Below are positions 4,599 to 29,575 of a DNA stretch of 32,016 nucleotides, one piece after another (the first letter of the stretch is position 1; every line of letters starts with the position of its first letter). Source of the DNA: a virus (taxonomy: Duplodnaviria > Heunggongvirae > Uroviricota > Caudoviricetes); the IMG/VR virus record IMGVR_UViG_2541047849_000007; one strand, 5' to 3'. A program made the translations under genes and the position numbers. Below the pieces are notes generated by a model, which saw only the letters and a list, made by a program, of their open reading frames with translations, was not told the DNA's origin and did not search any database.

Positions 4599-5765
4599 TT
4601 AAACTCCTTTGACAACGTCAGCGTTGACCTGTGGAACCCCGATTTCAGCGGCCAGATTCATGGCGGCTATTACCAGGTTACTGACGGCCAGCGGATACAG
4701 CAGGCTGACCATATTTTTACGATGACTTCCCGGATTGCTCAGGCGGGCACGTATGGCATCCACTGCGCTGGCGTCCATAATGTCCGTCAGTTGTTTACCG
4801 GCCCGTTGCAGTTTGAACGTCAGAAATTCTTCAAGGTTATTGTCCAGAGGCAGAAGTTCGACCACCTCACAGCGCTGAACGACTTCACGGACTTCCATAT
4901 TGCGTTCAGACAGTTTTGTCGCCAGTTCCGGCTGGCCAATCAGCACGATGGACAGCAGTTTTTTGAAACCGGACTCCAGCTCAAAAAAGCGTTTGAGGTG
5001 TTTCAGTGTCGGAATGGGCAGACTGTGGGCCTCCTCAATCACCAGAACGTGGCTGAACCCCGCCTGGCTGCTGTCTTTCAGGACGCGATGCAACTGGCGA
5101 AAGCGGGCGTCCTGACTGCGTCTGATGCTTTCCAGTGGTGCGATGGTACTGATAATGGCTTCGGCAATAGCTGCTGCCTTCAGGGTTTTCCCTTTCACAT
5201 CGTTGTCTTCCATAGCGATGATGTATGGCTCGATAACAATTACCGGCGCATTCTCGCGGTTAATACGTTCAGTCAGGTCGCGGCGCAGCGTGGATTTACC
5301 CGCACCGGACTCACCGATGACGGCCATAAACCCACCATGACGGGCTGTCTGGTACAGCGCCTCACGCACGTAGCGAATGTCCGGGGTGGTGAACACATCA
5401 TCAGAACCCTGCATGGCTTCATCGGCGAACGGGTCACGGAAAAGACCAAACGCTTTTTTGGTTGCTGGAAATAACACCTGTTTTTTGAGTAACATATTCT
5501 CTTCCTCACTGAGGCTCGTTTTATCTGTGGTACCCGCTGTACGGGGCGTGGCCGCGCCCTGTACAGCATCAAAACTCTTCGTTGTATCAATCCCCTGACT
5601 TTCCAGCCAGGACGCAAGACGCCGGCGCACTTCTCCGGGGCTGGTGCGGGGCCACGCGTTATGATTCACAATCTGGGCCAGCGTGGCCTCAGAAACATCG
5701 ACAGCTCTCGCCGCCACCGCCTGTGGAATACGGGCCTCTTTCAGTTGCTGCTTCAGTACCAGCAT
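4599..5765 (-). CDS. AAA+ transposition ATPase / target-DNA activator (MuB/TniB-like)
   Basis: Walker A GESGAGKST and Walker B-like VLVIEEAH; N-terminal HTH-like region. Preferred start is ATG 5763-5765 (GAGGAGGG RBS 5 nt upstream) rather than the track start at 5792. Immediately downstream of the transposase. Confidence 0.8.
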   Translation of the reverse strand: MLVLKQQLKEARIPQAVAARAVDVSEATLAQIVNHNAWPRTSPGEVRRRLASWLESQGIDTTKSFDAVQGAATPRTAGTTDKTSLSEEENMLLKKQVLFPATKKAFGLFRDPFADEAMQGSDDVFTTPDIRYVREALYQTARHGGFMAVIGESGAGKSTLRRDLTERINRENAPVIVIEPYIIAMEDNDVKGKTLKAAAIAEAIISTIAPLESIRRSQDARFRQLHRVLKDSSQAGFSHVLVIEEAHSLPIPTLKHLKRFFELESGFKKLLSIVLIGQPELATKLSERNMEVREVVQRCEVVELLPLDNNLEEFLTFKLQRAGKQLTDIMDASAVDAIRARLSNPGSHRKNMVSLLYPLAVSNLVIAAMNLAAEIGVPQVNADVVKGV

Positions 5766-5775
5766 GTTTCCCTCC

Positions 5776-7545
5776 TCAGTTGCCGTTAACAATGCTGATA
5801 ACGCTGCTGCGGGCCGGCGTGGTCAGCGTGGCCATGACTTCATCCAGTGCGGCTTCCGGTACGCCGTCCGGGTACTGTGCTGTTAACTGGCGGTAATGTT
5901 CCGGCGTCCAGGTCAGGCCGTCGGCGCTGAACTTATCGCGCAGGGCTTTCGCGGCCTCCACATGAGTCATGGGACGCTGTTCAGTGCGCGGTCCGCGTAC
6001 GTCAGAGGCCTGACCACGCTTCGGTATACAGGCCGGAAGTGTGGCGTCATCAATATGTTTATACGGGTCAAGCCGCCCGCCGAACGGCAGCGCCTTCGCC
6101 TTGCGTGCGGCAGCTGCATCTGCGGCGTTGTCTGTACCGGTGACCAGCGCTTCGGTTTCTTTTGCCGCCATCTGCGCCGGGGTTTCCGGCAGGGCTTTGT
6201 AACTTTCGCCAAATACCGCCGCGCCTTCAGCAAAGCCAAACTCGTTCTTTCTGACCTCTTCGACCAGGAAGAACGTCTCGTGGCCGTCCTCACCGGTCAG
6301 AACCACCTGTGCCACATCGCTGCGCCACGGGTTACGGGTAATCATCAGTTTTTCACCGACCAGTACGCCCGGTACCGTTGATACGTCAAATTCAGTGCCC
6401 CGGAACGAGACACGAAGTTTTGGCGTGACTTTGCGGAGTTCTGGTGCCGCCACAGCCAGTTCACGACATACCTCAACGGAAGGCGCTTTTTTCAGCTGCT
6501 CAGCAGTAATCTTCAGCCAGATATCCGTGCGGGTTTTACCGTGGCGGCTGTGAACAGCCGTGGCGTTAAAGTGGCTGCGCCATTTCGCGGCCAGCGCGTT
6601 GAGTTCTTCCAGACTGTGAACCGGCCGGAACTTCAGACCCGGCTCCAGCTTGCGTTCGATAATGTCACGCGCCTTTTCCACCTGTCCGGTGGCGCGGGCG
6701 TTATGCGGCTTGTGCGCTATCAGGTCGATGCCCAGTGAGCGGCACATGTTTTTCGTCATACCCGCGGTGTTTGCCGAGCCGGGGTCGAGATAGAGTATTT
6801 TTGGCACGCCGTGCAGCACGTCTGCGCCGCCACGCTCCTGCATGGCGTTGATAAGCACAGAACACAGGTTCTCACCGGATTCCGCACCCGTCACATACTC
6901 AACGTAAATCCAGCCGCTGGCATGGTCGGTAATCTCGTAACTCCACACGCGGTCACTGGCGATACGGGCAAGGTTAGCGGGCTTGTTTTTGTAGAATTTC
7001 GCGCTGTCCATCACCTGCAGCCCTTTATGTCCATTGCTCAGGTAGTAAAGCGTGCAGAGTGAGGCGTCAATCTGCCAGACATGATTGGGGTGCAGACTGG
7101 CCACTTCGGTATGCGGTGCAGGGGCATCCAGTTGTTCCGGGTGCAGGCCATAGTTACGCAGGGCACGACTGATGGCATCTTCGGACAACGGGAAAAACTC
7201 ACCGGTGGTTTCATCTGTTCTGCCTGCGGAGATAAAGCCGTTAGCCCGCAGGGTTTCCACTGCATCCGCGATGGAATAGAGACGCTTACCGTTCTTGCGG
7301 GTGGCCTCACGTAGTGTGGCAGATATCAGCGCGGCTTCGTCGCGGGTCAGGGTGCTGCGTCCGGCATCGGCGCGTTTTTTGCGTTTATCAGTCACAGAGA
7401 CCTCCTTCAGCCTGCGCAGCAGAGTGGCGCGGGACATGCCAAGTTCAGCACAGGCAGCGTCGTATATTGCACCGCGTTTACCATGCCCCGCATTACGTGC
7501 CGCGCGGGCTGTTTCAACAAGTTTTTCAGTCAGTGCCGGGGTCAT
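5776..7545 (-). CDS. DDE transposase (Mu A-like, rve/integrase core)
   Basis: 589 aa. N-terminal HTH region, then a catalytic core with candidate DDE residues (HVWQIDAS ... LYLDPGSANT ... downstream E). ATG 7543-7545. Confidence 0.85.
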   Translation of the reverse strand: MTPALTEKLVETARAARNAGHGKRGAIYDAACAELGMSRATLLRRLKEVSVTDKRKKRADAGRSTLTRDEAALISATLREATRKNGKRLYSIADAVETLRANGFISAGRTDETTGEFFPLSEDAISRALRNYGLHPEQLDAPAPHTEVASLHPNHVWQIDASLCTLYYLSNGHKGLQVMDSAKFYKNKPANLARIASDRVWSYEITDHASGWIYVEYVTGAESGENLCSVLINAMQERGGADVLHGVPKILYLDPGSANTAGMTKNMCRSLGIDLIAHKPHNARATGQVEKARDIIERKLEPGLKFRPVHSLEELNALAAKWRSHFNATAVHSRHGKTRTDIWLKITAEQLKKAPSVEVCRELAVAAPELRKVTPKLRVSFRGTEFDVSTVPGVLVGEKLMITRNPWRSDVAQVVLTGEDGHETFFLVEEVRKNEFGFAEGAAVFGESYKALPETPAQMAAKETEALVTGTDNAADAAAARKAKALPFGGRLDPYKHIDDATLPACIPKRGQASDVRGPRTEQRPMTHVEAAKALRDKFSADGLTWTPEHYRQLTAQYPDGVPEAALDEVMATLTTPARSSVISIVNGN

Positions 7546-23299: not shown

Positions 23300-23635
23300 A
23301 TGTCACAGACCCCATCCGATACTTTTAAATTGTCTTATCCCTTCACCACTGCTGCAGGCACCAGAATTGAGCTGGTTGAACTGAAACGCCTGACGGTAAA
23401 AGACCTGAAGCAGGTGCGCAAAATCAGCAAAAACCCGGCAGACTGGGACGAACCGCTGATTGCCCGCAGTACTGGTCTTCTCCCGGAAGATCTCGACAAT
23501 ATGGATCTGGCTGATTACCTGCAGTTACAGAAACGATTTCAGCTCATCACGGGGATGGGTGAGAGCGACAAAGGCGCTGACGCAGGCGCAGGGGCTGCTG
23601 GCGAGATGGTTCCGGTTTCAGCCGGGGGAGATTGA
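23300..23635 (+). CDS. Tail assembly chaperone (P2 E-like)
   Basis: 111 aa between the tube and tape measure genes. Gly/Ala-rich C-terminus ending in a G-run next to its stop. Confidence 0.6.
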   Translation: MSQTPSDTFKLSYPFTTAAGTRIELVELKRLTVKDLKQVRKISKNPADWDEPLIARSTGLLPEDLDNMDLADYLQLQKRFQLITGMGESDKGADAGAGAAGEMVPVSAGGD

Positions 23636-23717
23636 TGCCCTCGATACTGACGATCTGGAGATGTGGCTGGAGCAGGCTGAAGAGCAAATAAAAAGCGAGT
23701 ACGGCGACAAATCATAG
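23300..23717 (+). CDS. Predicted frameshift-extended tail chaperone (requires a +1 shift near 23624-23630)
   Basis: A protein-like +1 frame (ARWFRFQPGEIDALDTDDLEMWLEQAEEQIKSEYGDKS) is open across the 3' end of the chaperone ORF and stops at 23717. The -1 frame is also open but reads as Arg/Trp-rich junk. Confidence 0.4.
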
Positions 23718-23792: not shown

Positions 23793-26744
23793 ATGTCGGG
23801 ACAGTTTTCAGTCGGCGTTGTTATCGGCGGGATGATTGGCAGCACATTCCGTTCTGCAATGAGCGGTACCCGCCGTGCGCTTGATTCCCTGAGCGATACC
23901 TCACGCCGCCTGCAGGAACGTCAGAACGCTTTAACCCGTGCAACAGAACGTTATGGTCAACTGGGCTCTTCCCGGATGCAGCATCTCAACAGCGAGCTGC
24001 TGCGGGTAAGCCGCACCATGGAGCAAATTGAGCGCCAGCAGCGCCGTCTGTCAGCGGCATCAGCCACCAGTGATGCGCTGAAAGCTAACCGCATGGCGCT
24101 GTATGGTCAGGGGATTGAAGCGTATGGCATGGCACAGACTGTTTATCATACGGTTTCCCCTGCCGTTCAGCAGTCCATGTCTTTTCAGGACAAAATGATT
24201 GATATGTCGATCACCGCAAAATATGACAATAAAACGCGGGATGCACTTGCCGGACAGATAAAAGGCTGGGCGCAAAAATACAATCAGTATCAGGATGAAC
24301 TGCAGGAGGCGGTGGGTTCGCTCATCAGCGACAATATTGATAACTTGTCAGATATCGGTTTTCTGATGCCGGATATTGCCCGCGCGGCAACGGCAACACG
24401 CACGTCATCTCAGGACTGGGCAAAAGTGGCCGCAGTCTGGCAAAACTCCCTGAAAGGTGCGGCCAGAGATTTTAGTGCCGTCCAGAATATTATGGCTTAT
24501 GCCGGTGACCAAGGGTCATTTGAAATCCCGGATCAGGTCAAGTGGATGCAGTCCCTGGCCCCAATGATGGCGGGTATTGCCAGTGGAAAAGAGGCTGTTG
24601 CTGAAATCGGGGCCAGTCTCCAGATAGCAAAAATCGGTGCGGGCTCCACCGACGAAGCAGCCAATAATTTTAAAAACTTTCTTACCAAAATTTTTGCCCG
24701 CGATACTCAGAAACAGTTTGCTGATCTGGGTATTGATTTGCAGGGTTCTGTTGCGAGTTATAAGGCTGCGGGGATCTCTCCGATTGAAGGGATGTTGAGT
24801 GTTATAGAACGTTACCTCAATGCCAAAAGCCCCGAAGCGCTGGCCGGCTTCAAATCCGCCATGAAAATAAAGAATGATACGGCAAGAGATGAGGCACTTC
24901 AGGCTCTGGCGAAAAACTTTGGTCTGGGCGATATGTTCGCGGATATGCAGGTCATGGCATTTATCCGCCCGATGCTGGCCAACATGGACAGATATCGCGA
25001 GATCCGTGCCGGTGCTCTCAGGGCTGCGGATAACGATTTGCTTGCCAGTGCTTACGATCAGCGGCTGAAATCTCCCCTTGAAGCCACTAAAGCGCTTATG
25101 GTCAGCAGTCGCGATCTGGCTATTACGCTGGGCGATCAGCTCGCCCCCTCTTTTATTTCTCTGACTCAGGAGCTGATCCCACTCATTCAGGGGGCAAAAC
25201 ACTGGGTGGCGACTCACCCGCAATTTGTCAGTGGGGCTTTTAAGCTCATCAGTGCGCTCCTTGCGATTAAGATAGCGACTGTTGGTCTCAAACTGGGGCT
25301 GAATCTCCTTATTTCCCCCTTTGTGAACGTCTGGAAAACTGCTGTTTTACTCCGGACCAACTGGCATCGACTGACTACCGCACTAGGAGAAGGTGGCAAA
25401 TTACGCTGGCTTGTCACTGGATTTAGCCGACTGACCAGCGGAGGACTGAAACTCAGCAAAGTTCTGGCGGGCAGCCTCGTTCGCGGTTTTATGAGCGCTG
25501 CACGTGCCGTTCTCTGGATTGGGCGAGCGCTGATGATGAATCCCATCGGTCTCGTTATCACCGCTGTCGCGGCAGCAGCTTACCTTATCTACCGCAACTG
25601 GGGGACAGTCAGTGGCTGGTTTAAACAGCGCTGGGCTGACATTCAGGAAGCCTTTAACGGCGGTATCGCGGGAACTGGTAAGCTGCTGATTAACTGGTCG
25701 CCGGCAGGGCTGCTCTATAAAGCCTTTGCGGCTGCGCTGAAATATTTCGGCGTTGCTCTGCCGGCAAAGTTCACCGACTTCGGTGGCCATCTTGTCGACG
25801 GTCTGATTAACGGTATCAAAAACAAATGGGGGTCGCTCAAATCCAGTGTAACCGGAATGGGTGACAGCATCAGTAGCTGGTTTAAACAGTGCTGGTCTGA
25901 CATTCAGGAGGCCTTTAACGGCGGTATCGCGGGAACTGGTAAGCTGCTGATTAACTGGTCGCCGGCAGGTCTGCTCTATAAAGCCTTTGCAGCTGCGCTG
26001 AAATATCTTGGTGTTGATCTGCCGGCAAAGTTCACCGACTTCGGTGGCCATCTTGTCGACGGTCTGATTAACGGTATCAAAAACAAATGGGAGTCGCTCA
26101 AATCCAGTGTAACCGGAATGGGTGACAGCATCAGTGGCTGGTTCAGTGAAAAGCTGGGTATTCATTCGCCGAGCCGCGTGTTTATGGGCTTTGGTGACAA
26201 TATCGCGCAGGGGGCCGCCATTGGCCTGCAGCGGAGCACTCCGATTGCAGCTCTGGCCGGGCAGCGAATGGCCAGTGAACTGCTCCCCAGAATGCCCGTG
26301 AGCATTCAGGGGCCAGAAATACGGGATAACACTTCAGGTGTTCGCTTCAGTATGCCGTTGCCCGATATCAACGGGTTTATGTCGTCTGCTAAAAATGCGA
26401 TCGGATCCGTAATCAATAGTTTGTCTTCCATGCCCGCTATTCCGATCTCCACCCGGGCATCGACTTTACCAGGTCAACGTCTGGCAAATGAGATGACACC
26501 GGATGTTCCCCGTATCCCCTCGCCTGAAATCCTGGCTGCCGGATATTCAGGCCGTGGTGCAGCTGCAACCGGCGGTGGAACGTCTGGTGGTATCCAGGTC
26601 AGCTTTAATCCTCAGTTTTTCCTCAATGGCAGGGAAACCACAGCGCCTGCAGGACTGACTGGTGCCCTGAATATGAGTCTGCATGAGCTGGAAAAAATGC
26701 TGGAGCGTCTGCTGGCTCAGAAACAACGTAAGGAGTACCGCTGA
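23793..26744 (+). CDS. Tail tape measure protein
   Basis: 983 aa, mostly helical with Gly-rich segments, downstream of the chaperone pair. Contains an internal 87-aa tandem duplication. Confidence 0.85.
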   Translation: MSGQFSVGVVIGGMIGSTFRSAMSGTRRALDSLSDTSRRLQERQNALTRATERYGQLGSSRMQHLNSELLRVSRTMEQIERQQRRLSAASATSDALKANRMALYGQGIEAYGMAQTVYHTVSPAVQQSMSFQDKMIDMSITAKYDNKTRDALAGQIKGWAQKYNQYQDELQEAVGSLISDNIDNLSDIGFLMPDIARAATATRTSSQDWAKVAAVWQNSLKGAARDFSAVQNIMAYAGDQGSFEIPDQVKWMQSLAPMMAGIASGKEAVAEIGASLQIAKIGAGSTDEAANNFKNFLTKIFARDTQKQFADLGIDLQGSVASYKAAGISPIEGMLSVIERYLNAKSPEALAGFKSAMKIKNDTARDEALQALAKNFGLGDMFADMQVMAFIRPMLANMDRYREIRAGALRAADNDLLASAYDQRLKSPLEATKALMVSSRDLAITLGDQLAPSFISLTQELIPLIQGAKHWVATHPQFVSGAFKLISALLAIKIATVGLKLGLNLLISPFVNVWKTAVLLRTNWHRLTTALGEGGKLRWLVTGFSRLTSGGLKLSKVLAGSLVRGFMSAARAVLWIGRALMMNPIGLVITAVAAAAYLIYRNWGTVSGWFKQRWADIQEAFNGGIAGTGKLLINWSPAGLLYKAFAAALKYFGVALPAKFTDFGGHLVDGLINGIKNKWGSLKSSVTGMGDSISSWFKQCWSDIQEAFNGGIAGTGKLLINWSPAGLLYKAFAAALKYLGVDLPAKFTDFGGHLVDGLINGIKNKWESLKSSVTGMGDSISGWFSEKLGIHSPSRVFMGFGDNIAQGAAIGLQRSTPIAALAGQRMASELLPRMPVSIQGPEIRDNTSGVRFSMPLPDINGFMSSAKNAIGSVINSLSSMPAIPISTRASTLPGQRLANEMTPDVPRIPSPEILAAGYSGRGAAATGGGTSGGIQVSFNPQFFLNGRETTAPAGLTGALNMSLHELEKMLERLLAQKQRKEYR
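25617..26140 (+). repeat. Tandem duplication (2 x 261 bp, about 96% identical) inside the tape measure gene
   Basis: Unit beginning TGGTTTAAACAG recurs 261 bp later. The protein repeat is WFKQ(R/C)W(A/S)DIQEAFNGGIAGTGKLLINWSPAGLLYKAFAAALKY ... FTDFGGHLVDGLINGIKNKW(G/E)SLKSSVTGMGDSIS. Confidence 0.85.
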
Positions 26745-27628
26745 TGTTTGCCGTACTGGGTGATATTGAGTTTGATCTGATTACCTACTGGGACGGCTTC
26801 GAGGCCACGTTCGGCGTCGATTATGCGGAGCATGCCCGCATCGGGGGTAAGCCTGGCCTGCAGTTCGTCGGCGACAGGCTGGACGAAATCCAGATAAGTC
26901 TGGTCTTCCATCAGCATTATTGTGCACCCGATGTGGAGCTGGCGAGACTGCGAACAACCATGAAAGCCCATCAGGCACTGGCGCTGGTCTTCGGCAACGG
27001 TGACTATCGTGGCTGGTTCGTGATTACCGATGTGACCGCAACCAGCGAGCAGACAGACAGCACCGGTAACGTGCTGGCTGTCAGTGCCACCGTGTCTCTC
27101 CGGGAATACACCGGTGATCCGAAAAATCCTCTGCAACCACCGGCAATACGCACGAAGCTCCCGGGTGTCGGGGCGGTCTCCGGTGCCATTCCTTCACCTT
27201 CAGGGGTGGCGCAGTTCATCCGCAACGGCGTCAACTATGCGAAACAGGCGCAGTCTGTACTCCAGACCACTATCAGCGCCGTTCGGGTGACACAGAAAAT
27301 GAAGGATAACCCCGTTGTCGCACTGACCCGTGTGCCGGGGCTGATGAGCGGACTGGGTAATATCTCCGGGGCTCTGGGGAAAAGTGTTCCGGCGTTTAAC
27401 GCACTCTCTGAATCCATGCCCGATGCCATCAGTCTGGCCAGAACAGCCAGCGAAGCAGCCACGTATGTACAGCAGGCACAGTCTGCGCTGAGTGGTGTGG
27501 ACAAAAGAAATATTGCAGGTGCTCTGGATACCGTTTCCGGGCAGCTTAACGCCGCCAGCACAGCATTCAACCGCATGTCTCCGGGATTAAGTGCAATGGC
27601 CGCCAGAATACTGACGAGGAGTGTGTGA
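26744..27628 (+). CDS. Tail protein (P2 gpU / Mu N DNA-circulation family)
   Basis: 294 aa directly after the tape measure gene (1-nt overlap TGATG). N-terminus MFAVLGDIEF ... is gpU-like. Confidence 0.55.
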   Translation: MFAVLGDIEFDLITYWDGFEATFGVDYAEHARIGGKPGLQFVGDRLDEIQISLVFHQHYCAPDVELARLRTTMKAHQALALVFGNGDYRGWFVITDVTATSEQTDSTGNVLAVSATVSLREYTGDPKNPLQPPAIRTKLPGVGAVSGAIPSPSGVAQFIRNGVNYAKQAQSVLQTTISAVRVTQKMKDNPVVALTRVPGLMSGLGNISGALGKSVPAFNALSESMPDAISLARTASEAATYVQQAQSALSGVDKRNIAGALDTVSGQLNAASTAFNRMSPGLSAMAARILTRSV

Positions 27629-27840
27629 TGTTTCTTGAACATGTTACCCGTGACGGAGAGCGCTGGGATTCGCTGGCATGGCAGTACTACGGTGACCCGC
27701 TGGGCTATCCCCGGATTATTGCCGCCAATCCGCACGTGGCCATCACGCCGGTGCTGCCCTCCGGGCTGTTGTTACTGATCCCGGTGATTGAGGCTGAAGA
27801 AGCCCGTACAGAAGAGGATATTGCCCCATGGCTGAGATAA
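27628..27840 (+). CDS. Tail protein X (P2 gpX-like)
   Basis: About 70 aa from ATG 27628. Size and position between the gpU-like and gpD-like genes fit P2 X. Confidence 0.55.
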   Translation: MFLEHVTRDGERWDSLAWQYYGDPLGYPRIIAANPHVAITPVLPSGLLLLIPVIEAEEARTEEDIAPWLR

Positions 27841-28982
27841 ACAGCACTGCGCAAGTCACATCAGCGTTAACCAGCGTCAGCGATGTGCTGACACCGGTGT
27901 TCACTCTGTGGTATCTGCAGAAAAACATCACCTCTGATATCGCGCCTTATGTCACCCGTGTGACCTGGAGCGATAACATCAAAAATGAGTCCGATACCAT
28001 TGAGGTGGAGCTGGACGACACCGATGGCCGCTGGCTGGATAAGTGGTATCCGGGCAAGGGTGACACGCTGACGCTGAAAATGGGCTATCAGGGCGAGAAG
28101 CTGCTGTCCTGCGGTACGTTCTCTATAGACGAGATCGAAGTGAGTTCGCCCGCTTCCGTTGTTTCTATCCGTGGGGTGGCCACCTCGGTTAACAGTGCTC
28201 TGCGGACTAAAACCAGTCGTGGTTTTGAGAACACCACGCTGGCAGCTGTTGCGGGGCGGATTGCCAGAAAGCACCGACTGAAACTGGTGGGCAGCATTGA
28301 GTCCATCAGAATCGACCGGGTGACCCAGTATGCTGAAACCGACGTGGGTTTTCTGCGCCGGCTGGCCAGCGAGTATGGTTATGCAGTGAAAGTGGTCAGT
28401 GACCAGCTGATTTTTTCTCATCTGGCCACACTGCGCAGTCAGGAGCCGGTCAGGCAGTTAAAACCGCAGGATGTGGCCCGCTTTTCCCTGCGTGACACCA
28501 TCAACCGGGTCTATAAATCTGCAAAGGTAAAACACCAGAAAAGCAGCAGTAAAAAACTGATCGTCTACGAAGCTGATGGTGGTACCCGTGAAAGCGACAA
28601 AAAGCTCAAAGGTGGTAAGGTTACCAGCGCTGACTCACTTAAAGTTAACAGCCGCGTCAGCGACCCGGACAGTGCCCGGATTAAAGCGGATTCAGCACTG
28701 GCCAGACATAACGAATACCAGCAGAACGGCTCCCTGACGCTGACGGGAACACCTCAACTGACAGCAGGCAACAAAATTGAACTGGTGGGTTTTGGGCAGT
28801 TATCCGGGCCATGGCTCATAACCACTGCCCGCCATGCGTTTGACCGTAACAGCGGCTACACCACAGAGCTGGAAGTGGCACGGGGGCCAGTCACAAGAGG
28901 GAAAAAACAAAAAACTCAGAAACTCACGGTTTATCACCCGGATGGCAGTACATCGACGGTGATTAAGGAGAAGAAAAAATGA
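27828..28982 (+). CDS. Late control D-like tail/baseplate hub protein (P2 gpD / Mu P)
   Basis: 384 aa; size and order match P2 gpD. Confidence 0.75.
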   Translation: MAEINSTAQVTSALTSVSDVLTPVFTLWYLQKNITSDIAPYVTRVTWSDNIKNESDTIEVELDDTDGRWLDKWYPGKGDTLTLKMGYQGEKLLSCGTFSIDEIEVSSPASVVSIRGVATSVNSALRTKTSRGFENTTLAAVAGRIARKHRLKLVGSIESIRIDRVTQYAETDVGFLRRLASEYGYAVKVVSDQLIFSHLATLRSQEPVRQLKPQDVARFSLRDTINRVYKSAKVKHQKSSSKKLIVYEADGGTRESDKKLKGGKVTSADSLKVNSRVSDPDSARIKADSALARHNEYQQNGSLTLTGTPQLTAGNKIELVGFGQLSGPWLITTARHAFDRNSGYTTELEVARGPVTRGKKQKTQKLTVYHPDGSTSTVIKEKKK

Positions 28983-29575
28983 CTGGTGTCACTCGTCAGG
29001 TCGGTACGGTCAGTGCCGTTGATGCCGACAGGGTTCAGGCCCGCGTTCGTCTGCCTGAATGCGATAACCTGCGCACAAACTGGCTTAACGTGCTGCAGCG
29101 CAATACCCAGGATAACAAAGATTACTGGCTCCCTGACGTGGGGGAGCAGGTTGAGGTGCTGCTCGATGCCAACGGCGAGGATGGTGTTATTCTGGGCGCG
29201 GTGTATTCAGACGTCGATAAACCACCGTTCAGTGACAAAAATATCCGGGGAACCCGGTTTGCTGATGGTGCAGAGTACAGCTACAACCGGAAGACGCACA
29301 CTCTGACCATCCGGGGCGGCATTGAGCATATTGTCATTGAGTGTGGTGCTGATGTGGTATTGAAAACACAGAAAGCCACGATTGACGCACCGGAAACCGA
29401 ACTTACCGGAGATCTGCGTGTCAGGGGAAAGCTGATTTACGAAGGAGGCATGGCGGGTTCTGGTGGTAAAGGTGTTACCGCGACCATCCATGGCAATATC
29501 GAGATTAAAGGGAATGCCCATGCCACGGGCAGTATGCTGTCTGATGGCGAAAACTCCAGCCACCACTCCCACTGA
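28979..29575 (+). CDS. Baseplate assembly protein V / spike (P2 gpV-like)
   Basis: 198 aa with a strong RBS (AAGGAG). Gly-rich C-terminus ending in a His-rich tip (SSHHSH), as seen in spike proteins. Confidence 0.7.
   Translation: MTGVTRQVGTVSAVDADRVQARVRLPECDNLRTNWLNVLQRNTQDNKDYWLPDVGEQVEVLLDANGEDGVILGAVYSDVDKPPFSDKNIRGTRFADGAEYSYNRKTHTLTIRGGIEHIVIECGADVVLKTQKATIDAPETELTGDLRVRGKLIYEGGMAGSGGKGVTATIHGNIEIKGNAHATGSMLSDGENSSHHSH

Follow-up and report, generated by a model that had tools for sequence, protein, structure and literature searches.

Can a protein that sets the length of a phage tail vary in length by whole modules among natural prophages, and if so, by which route? To our knowledge, few molecular machines have a ruler that sets their size, and the phage tape measure serves as the textbook example. 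The question is raised by the gene for the tail's tape measure protein (TMP) in the viral record IMGVR_UViG_2541047849_000007 of IMG/VR, whose 32,016 nucleotides (nt) as a whole are called the window below. Within this gene, a segment of 261 base pairs (bp) stands twice in tandem. The explanation that we favour, with a probability of roughly 0.85, is that a module of the TMP was duplicated in frame as a derived event, that recombination has varied its copy number between one and four, and that tail length follows.

Tandem Repeats Finder, applied to positions 24000-29000 of the window, reported a sole array at 25609-26143 with a period of 261, 2.0 copies, 95% matches, no indels and a score of 993. 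A repeat search yielded two tandem 261-bp copies with 96% identity, and a gap-free alignment of copy 1 with copy 2 contained 11 mismatches in 261 columns. Chance would by far not account for two exactly adjoining units that agree at 250 of 261 positions. The elements concerned are the following.

23793..26744, + strand: tail tape measure protein gene, 983 amino acids (uninterrupted open reading frame, PF10145, phrog_28, RefSeq annotation)
25609..25869, + strand: copy 1 of the repeat, 261 bp long, 25611-25871 in codon register, residues 607-693 (Tandem Repeats Finder, repeat search, alignment)
25870..26130, + strand: copy 2 of the repeat, 261 bp long, 25872-26132 in codon register, residues 694-780 (Tandem Repeats Finder, repeat search, alignment)
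26131..26143, + strand: 13-nt start of a third unit, TCAGTGGCTGGTT, a short direct repeat bracketing the unit

The array lies within an uninterrupted reading frame, which is kept because 261 bp correspond to 87 codons. The gene product matches PF10145 PhageMin_Tail (E=2e-20; 73.9 bits versus a cut-off of 33.2), phrog_28 "tail length tape measure protein" (E=5e-135), and phrog_794 as well as other TMP families; hundreds of RefSeq genomes carry the annotation phage tail tape measure protein for this gene. The order of the genes, which is sheath (PF04984), tube (PF04985), chaperone (PF10109), TMP, gpU (PF06995), gpX and a gpD-like hub (PF05954), fits the position of a TMP. The preliminary description of this DNA, made from its letters alone, had proposed an in-frame tandem duplication of 261 bp (87 residues) inside a tape measure gene, with about 11 differences in 261 positions. 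The repeat, its frame and its host gene are borne out by the results given above, and the number of differences is exactly 11. The coordinates 25617-26140 given there mark the right site, but start 8 nt too late and end between the last base of copy 2 (26130) and that of the partial third copy (26143).

Six of the 11 differences between the copies change an amino acid and five are synonymous. With 0.030 nonsynonymous (pN) and 0.083 synonymous (pS) differences per site, pN/pS is about 0.36, and both copies appear constrained; orthologous comparisons with single-copy relatives gave ratios of 0.12-0.22. Ten of the 11 differences fall in the first 146 nt of the unit (clustering P=0.016), and the longest stretches that lack a difference span 74 nt and 59 nt. 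Compared to single-copy outgroups, copy 1 contains the derived states Gly2, Phe46, Ala49 and Gly74 of the unit, which are typical of first copies. Copy 2 contains the states Cys7, Leu46, Asp49 and Glu74 of last copies; its Ser9 was observed only in the allele group of the window, i.e. the window and the P0020 cluster. An antisense open reading frame of 254 amino acids (25401-26165, - strand), which spans the whole repeat, was rejected as coding; homology, synonymous changes and annotation favour the + frame.

By means of megablast, 5,426 complete E. coli genomes were searched. The gene family was found in 634 (repeat-region queries) to 636 (whole-gene query) of them, that is in about 12% (634/5426), including the reference strain EC958 of sequence type 131. 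In 14 genomes, which stem from poultry, humans, black kites (wild birds), oregano and chicken meat, the whole two-copy gene is present with 99.9-100% identity and all 2,952 bases in one piece. In several hundred further complete genomes, the gene is 93-98% identical and again has the length of two copies. Among complete genomes of the window type, the copy number is two throughout. The preliminary description had considered that better assemblies might show a single copy; this was looked for in the complete genomes, and the 14 near-identical ones keep both copies.

The copy number differs among the other members of the family. The lengths of the annotated TMP genes in complete genomes form a series, and those within the clade are exact multiples of 261 bp apart:

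2,466 bp, 821 amino acids: one copy, outgroup; GON1437 (L005) and 2014C-3075 (L006)
2,679 bp, 892 amino acids: one copy, outgroup; AF22
2,691 bp, 896 amino acids: one copy; MLI114, IPCEC48 and F1140
2,952 bp, 983 amino acids: two copies; window and EC958
3,213 bp, 1,070 amino acids: three copies; 10034292-3, FDAARGOS_1258, Z0117EC0055 and SaT040
3,474 bp, 1,157 amino acids: four copies; LH50-c (L015 282-3755, NZ_CP100500.1)

A second four-copy genome is LR-31 (NZ_AP027520.1), in which the four-copy query was matched in one piece, as judged by span. About 570 of the 634 genomes contain at least two copies. Two-copy genomes account for about 70% and three-copy genomes for about 20%; both values are estimates from evenly spaced samples of the match rankings. 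Query coverage is unfit for exact counts of three and four copies, since the search joins non-overlapping pieces and two-copy genomes reach 100%. A single-copy query was matched collinearly by 64-65 genomes, 17 of them at full length and the remainder with alleles of the outgroup type. In a collection of 5.8 billion proteins, the best-scoring relatives are 1,070, 983 and 896 residues long. The genome of NR3838 (NZ_AP040232.1) harbours two related prophages at 4.53 Mb and 4.62 Mb, whose TMPs contain two copies (H67) and three copies (H230), respectively; several other genomes also have more than one related TMP locus.

How the copy number changed can be read from the units themselves. They were compared at the variable sites, and changes were polarised with the single-copy outgroups. 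Derived states of first copies are located at nt 4, 99, 136, 146 and 221 of the unit, those of last copies at nt 19, 120, 138 and 141. In alleles with three or four copies, each middle unit is of the last-copy type at its 5' end and of the first-copy type in its 3' part; the last-copy 3' part is found in the final unit only. The reciprocal chimera, with the 5' end of a first copy and the 3' part of a last copy, occurs in two of the three single-copy alleles from within the clade that were examined. In IPCEC48 the crossover lies between nt 19 and 99 in an EC958-like background, and in MLI114 between about nt 75 and 99 in another background. The single copy of F1140 is of the first-copy type from end to end. 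For the three-copy alleles L003, L004 and L016, the crossovers lie at different points. Copies 2 and 3 of LH50-c are identical, and its latest expansion was therefore very recent. Complete genomes alone yield at least three types of contraction and three types of expansion, plus one further expansion to four copies. The first copy of P0020 has residues of the last copy patched into its middle, which suggests that gene conversion is also at work.

As judged from these sequences, the alleles of different copy number and the chimeric units are what unequal homologous recombination, acting repeatedly, is expected to produce. Genomes with two related prophages of differing copy number, such as NR3838, supply recombination partners. 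The expansion and contraction by recombination that the preliminary description had anticipated is thus documented by one-, two-, three- and four-copy alleles and by chimeric units in complete genomes. We propose the following course of events. Two copies of the short direct repeat TCAGTnnCTGGTT, which encodes S-x-W-F and already bracketed the module, would have been joined by slippage or illegitimate recombination. The resulting copies, now 96% identical, provide the substrate on which gene conversion and unequal homologous recombination act, with sister chromosomes or co-resident related prophages as possible partners. The outcome is the set of alleles with one, two, three and four copies. 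Since every residue of the TMP accounts for about 0.15 nm of tail, a copy would correspond to about 13 nm, or roughly three tube/sheath rings.

In known contractile tails, one ring adds about 4 nm. An 87-residue copy is expected to add about 12.6-15 nm to the tail, which by our own reckoning makes about three tube/sheath rings. The lower value follows the length rule for TMPs of 0.145-0.15 nm of tail per residue (PMC5099701), and so does the roughly 13 nm predicted in the preliminary description. The Mu-like myophage KS10 has a TMP of 811 residues and a tail of about 140 nm, which corresponds to 0.17 nm per residue (PMC2628397). In phage TP901-1, a duplication within the TMP led to tails that were 30% longer, and the titre was kept (PMC5099701).

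The module might instead serve as a functional domain, e.g. in membrane insertion, in contact with the tube lumen or in chaperone binding, whose copy number alters that function, or nothing at all, but not tail length. In favour of this alternative, the module is glycine-rich and begins at residue 607, right after two hydrophobic segments for which the Kyte-Doolittle mean in a 19-residue window exceeds 1.6:

25224..25316, + strand: first hydrophobic (membrane-like) segment, residues 478-508
25527..25592, + strand: second hydrophobic segment, residues 579-600, directly 5' of the repeat

Moreover, its core NWSP-GL-YKAF is strongly conserved across phages of Burkholderia, Ralstonia and Pseudomonas, which suggests a role of the module beyond that of a spacer. 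However, in all TMPs that were tested experimentally, in-frame deletions and duplications shifted tail length proportionally, among them deletions in hydrophobic regions (PMC5099701). Furthermore, intact alleles with one to four copies are all common in complete genomes, so that the dosage of the module is tolerated. We therefore regard it as unlikely that copy number acts on something other than tail length.

When did the duplication arise? Between alleles (window versus EC958 or L003), orthologous copies differ at 2-8 nt; inside a single allele, paralogous copies differ at 11-19 nt. The duplication therefore predates the diversification of the prophage group. Copy-specific substitutions are common to alleles whose flanks are 2-5% apart. 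The single unit of the outgroups differs from the units of the window at 26-32 positions. By these comparisons, the duplication is derived and arose after the single-copy outgroup alleles of E. coli had split off. The preliminary description had called it recent, which stands insofar as it is derived, has single-copy relatives and is younger than the outgroup split; it does not stand insofar as the duplication is common to most of the 634 genomes and predates the diversification of the prophage group.

The single-copy outgroups also indicate where the duplication began. In these alleles, a short direct repeat that encodes S-x-W-F already stands on either side of the unit. The bracketing sequences match at 11 of 13 nt in 2014C-3075 (L006) and share an exact 7-nt core in GON1437 (L005). 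The repeat junction of the window falls within this short direct repeat, which is likely the site of the original duplication. Given the bracketing repeat in the outgroups, an origin mediated by microhomology seems most likely.

A related question is whether the two copies could be an ancient, fixed two-domain architecture of the TMP family, with gene conversion keeping them 96% identical. When the unit was compared by tblastn with 50,697 phage records, 136 were matched, mostly from phages of Burkholderia, Ralstonia and Pseudomonas. The module forms one uninterrupted match in 135 of these records, which speaks against an old fixed duplication; the exception is Escherichia phage PhiKM, in which the match is split in two. 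Among 1.84 billion representative proteins, 561 were matched by the 87-residue unit. The best 150 matches contain 92 full-length proteins (at least 700 residues), of which 58 have one stretch of the module, 24 have two, eight have three and two have four. The 34 of 92 distant TMPs with two to four stretches are what an ancient architecture would predict, and the conversion-like patch in the first copy of P0020 as well as the concentration of the window's differences in the first 146 nt point in the same direction. However, the copies within these multi-copy relatives share 35-74% identity with one another and about 31-52% with the window unit, which fits separate, older duplications in other lineages. 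In addition, the nearest single-copy relatives are alleles of E. coli prophages that are about 90% identical in the C-terminal half. An ancient architecture is accordingly quite improbable. The comparison of copies rather indicates that the module was multiplied in tandem repeatedly, and earlier, in other lineages, and that the duplication of the window is the youngest case among those compared.

The weakest alternative, namely that the doubling in the window arose during assembly, from a mis-assembled repeat or from a single copy that was doubled wrongly, could invoke the known tendency of tandem repeats to cause assembly errors and the PhiKM record, which breaks exactly at the repeat site, but it is extremely improbable and, by the sequence comparisons, already largely refuted: the 11 differences between the copies are not what a spurious doubling would yield, both copies recur in the 14 independent complete genomes and in the several hundred more diverged ones, and the copy-specific substitutions are common to diverged alleles.

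The repeat does disturb assemblies, as had been expected in the preliminary description. The PhiKM record (L001, PQ738613.1) contains a gap of 100 N at 4915-5014, both edges of which map inside the repeat, and its TMP is annotated as two fragments. The single-copy alleles P0100 and P0101, whose flanks differ from those of the window at one base in 2,430, occur solely in Logan, European Nucleotide Archive metagenome and draft (short-read) assemblies. In the single-copy loci with flanks close to those of the window (L008-L011 3001-5691), the breakpoints lie in the two stretches of 74 nt and 59 nt over which the copies do not differ. Alleles of the P0100/P0101 type may be real recombinants or collapses in the de Bruijn graph.

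Several points weigh against the explanation as a whole, that is, a derived duplication with recombining copy number and tail length following from it. The genomes are called complete here irrespective of the sequencing technology behind them. Some single-copy database alleles are known solely from short-read assemblies and are possible collapses. Fitch parsimony on a neighbour-joining tree of the non-repeat residues gave 18 copy-number changes, an overestimate that was not relied on, because many alleles stem from short-read assemblies and the gene itself is mosaic. The effect on tail length is a prediction from the published rule, the data for this phage being sequences. The unit contains 14 glycines among its 87 residues and two prolines; it may thus not form one straight helix, and its extension per residue may be less than 0.15 nm. 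A single-sequence AlphaFold2 model of residues 540-830 was helical, with a mean predicted local distance difference test score (pLDDT) of 40 and a predicted template modelling score (pTM) of 0.20, and is uninformative and not counted as evidence; a sequence search of the PDB did not find a solved homologue. Finally, the unit is about 50% identical across distant phages.

The phage type was deduced from the neighbouring genes and from relatives. The closest cultured phage is PhiKM (PQ738613, Bcepmuvirus), which is 97.6% identical in nucleotide sequence over the TMP gene, and a protein of 589 residues encoded at 5776-7545 (- strand) matches the rve integrase core PF00665, as is expected of a DDE transposase. 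Because of this relatedness over the TMP gene, the rve-core protein and the tail genes, the window is classified, on sequence grounds, as a BcepMu/Mu-like transposable prophage with a contractile tail. The genes next to the TMP gene and a second length polymorphism within it are located as follows.

23300..23635, + strand: tail assembly chaperone gene (PF10109 Phage_TAC_7, E=5.5e-21), overlapped by a downstream open reading frame ending at 23717
26744..27628, + strand: gpU-like tail protein gene (PF06995 Phage_P2_GpU, E=6.5e-39), directly 3' of the TMP gene
26277..26489, + strand: 71-residue segment, residues 829-899, second length polymorphism of the TMP gene (alignment with L005 and L006)

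The reading frame ending at 23717 overlaps the chaperone gene in the +1/-2 frame, and RefSeq labels the equivalent place "GpE family phage tail protein". A run of G is present at about 23624-23629 within the chaperone gene. The overlap at 23300-23717 may reflect programmed frameshifting of the kind found in Mu (-2). The 71-residue segment is missing from the alleles of 821 residues (L005, L006) and present in the allele of 892 residues (L013). A diverged motif of about 21 residues, GQR[ML]A.E..P..P....PEI, stands at both of its ends, and the segment may be an old duplication or may have been lost by deletion between short repeats. Window-type and L005/L006-type alleles are only weakly similar at residues of about 100-470 (about 24090-25200 of the window), whereas they are about 90% identical over residues 1-100 and from residue 470 onwards. 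A weakly similar N-terminal block between parts of such identity indicates module exchange inside the TMP gene, which is mosaic.

How does this locus compare with known systems? As in the gpH protein of phage lambda (Katsura & Hendrix 1984; Katsura 1987) and the TMP of TP901-1 (Mahony et al. 2016, PMC5099701), the change is an in-frame internal duplication or deletion that leaves the ends intact, and a proportional change in length is expected. In contrast to those laboratory constructs in non-contractile phages, the case described here is a natural series of one to four copies in a contractile-tailed transposable prophage, known from sequence alone. Short tandem repeats in TMPs consist of units of 11 or 18 residues anchored by W/F, and for them, too, comparing orthologous with paralogous differences reveals how units were duplicated and lost (Belcaid et al. 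2011, PMC3271669). Unlike those repeats, the unit comprises 87 residues, which is no multiple of 11 or 18, and is present in few (one to four), near-identical copies; unequal homologous crossover is therefore the evident mechanism. At the DNA level, Tandem Repeats Finder detected no period shorter than 261 bp within positions 24000-29000, and many tandem units of 11 or 18 residues with aromatic anchors were not seen there. The TMPs of BcepMu-like and P2-like phages of Burkholderia, Ralstonia and Pseudomonas (phiE255, phiE202, phiE52237) contain the same 87-residue module with about 48-54% identity at the same relative place, as one uninterrupted match in contrast to the two copies of the window. 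PhiKM has the gene order of the window, but the gap in its repeat makes its copy number unreadable.

That TMPs contain internal repeats, that these are duplicated and lost, and that tail length follows a rule is well known (PMC3271669, PMC5099701), and the locus is a clear but ordinary example of a length change in a tail ruler. The locus stands apart by its unit of 87 residues, by the contractile tail, and by a common, natural series of one to four copies in E. coli prophages; a literature search for a prior description of this copy-number polymorphism found none. Since the repeat breaks or collapses short-read assemblies, TMP lengths of this family that are taken from drafts or metagenomes call for caution. 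The prophages provide a ready-made natural series of otherwise near-identical members with one to four copies of one 87-residue module. This series could be used to test the length rule in a contractile tail, the quantisation of length by ring number, and the effect of length on infectivity. It is conceivable, albeit doubtful, that the series is a tail-length polymorphism maintained in E. coli prophage populations and not a neutral by-product of recombination, with contingency-like switching that shifts the length by about 13 nm (some three rings) at a time, occurs at high frequency and uses co-resident prophages as partners. If this were true, a contractile-tailed temperate phage could perhaps match its tail to the thickness of the host envelope or capsule.

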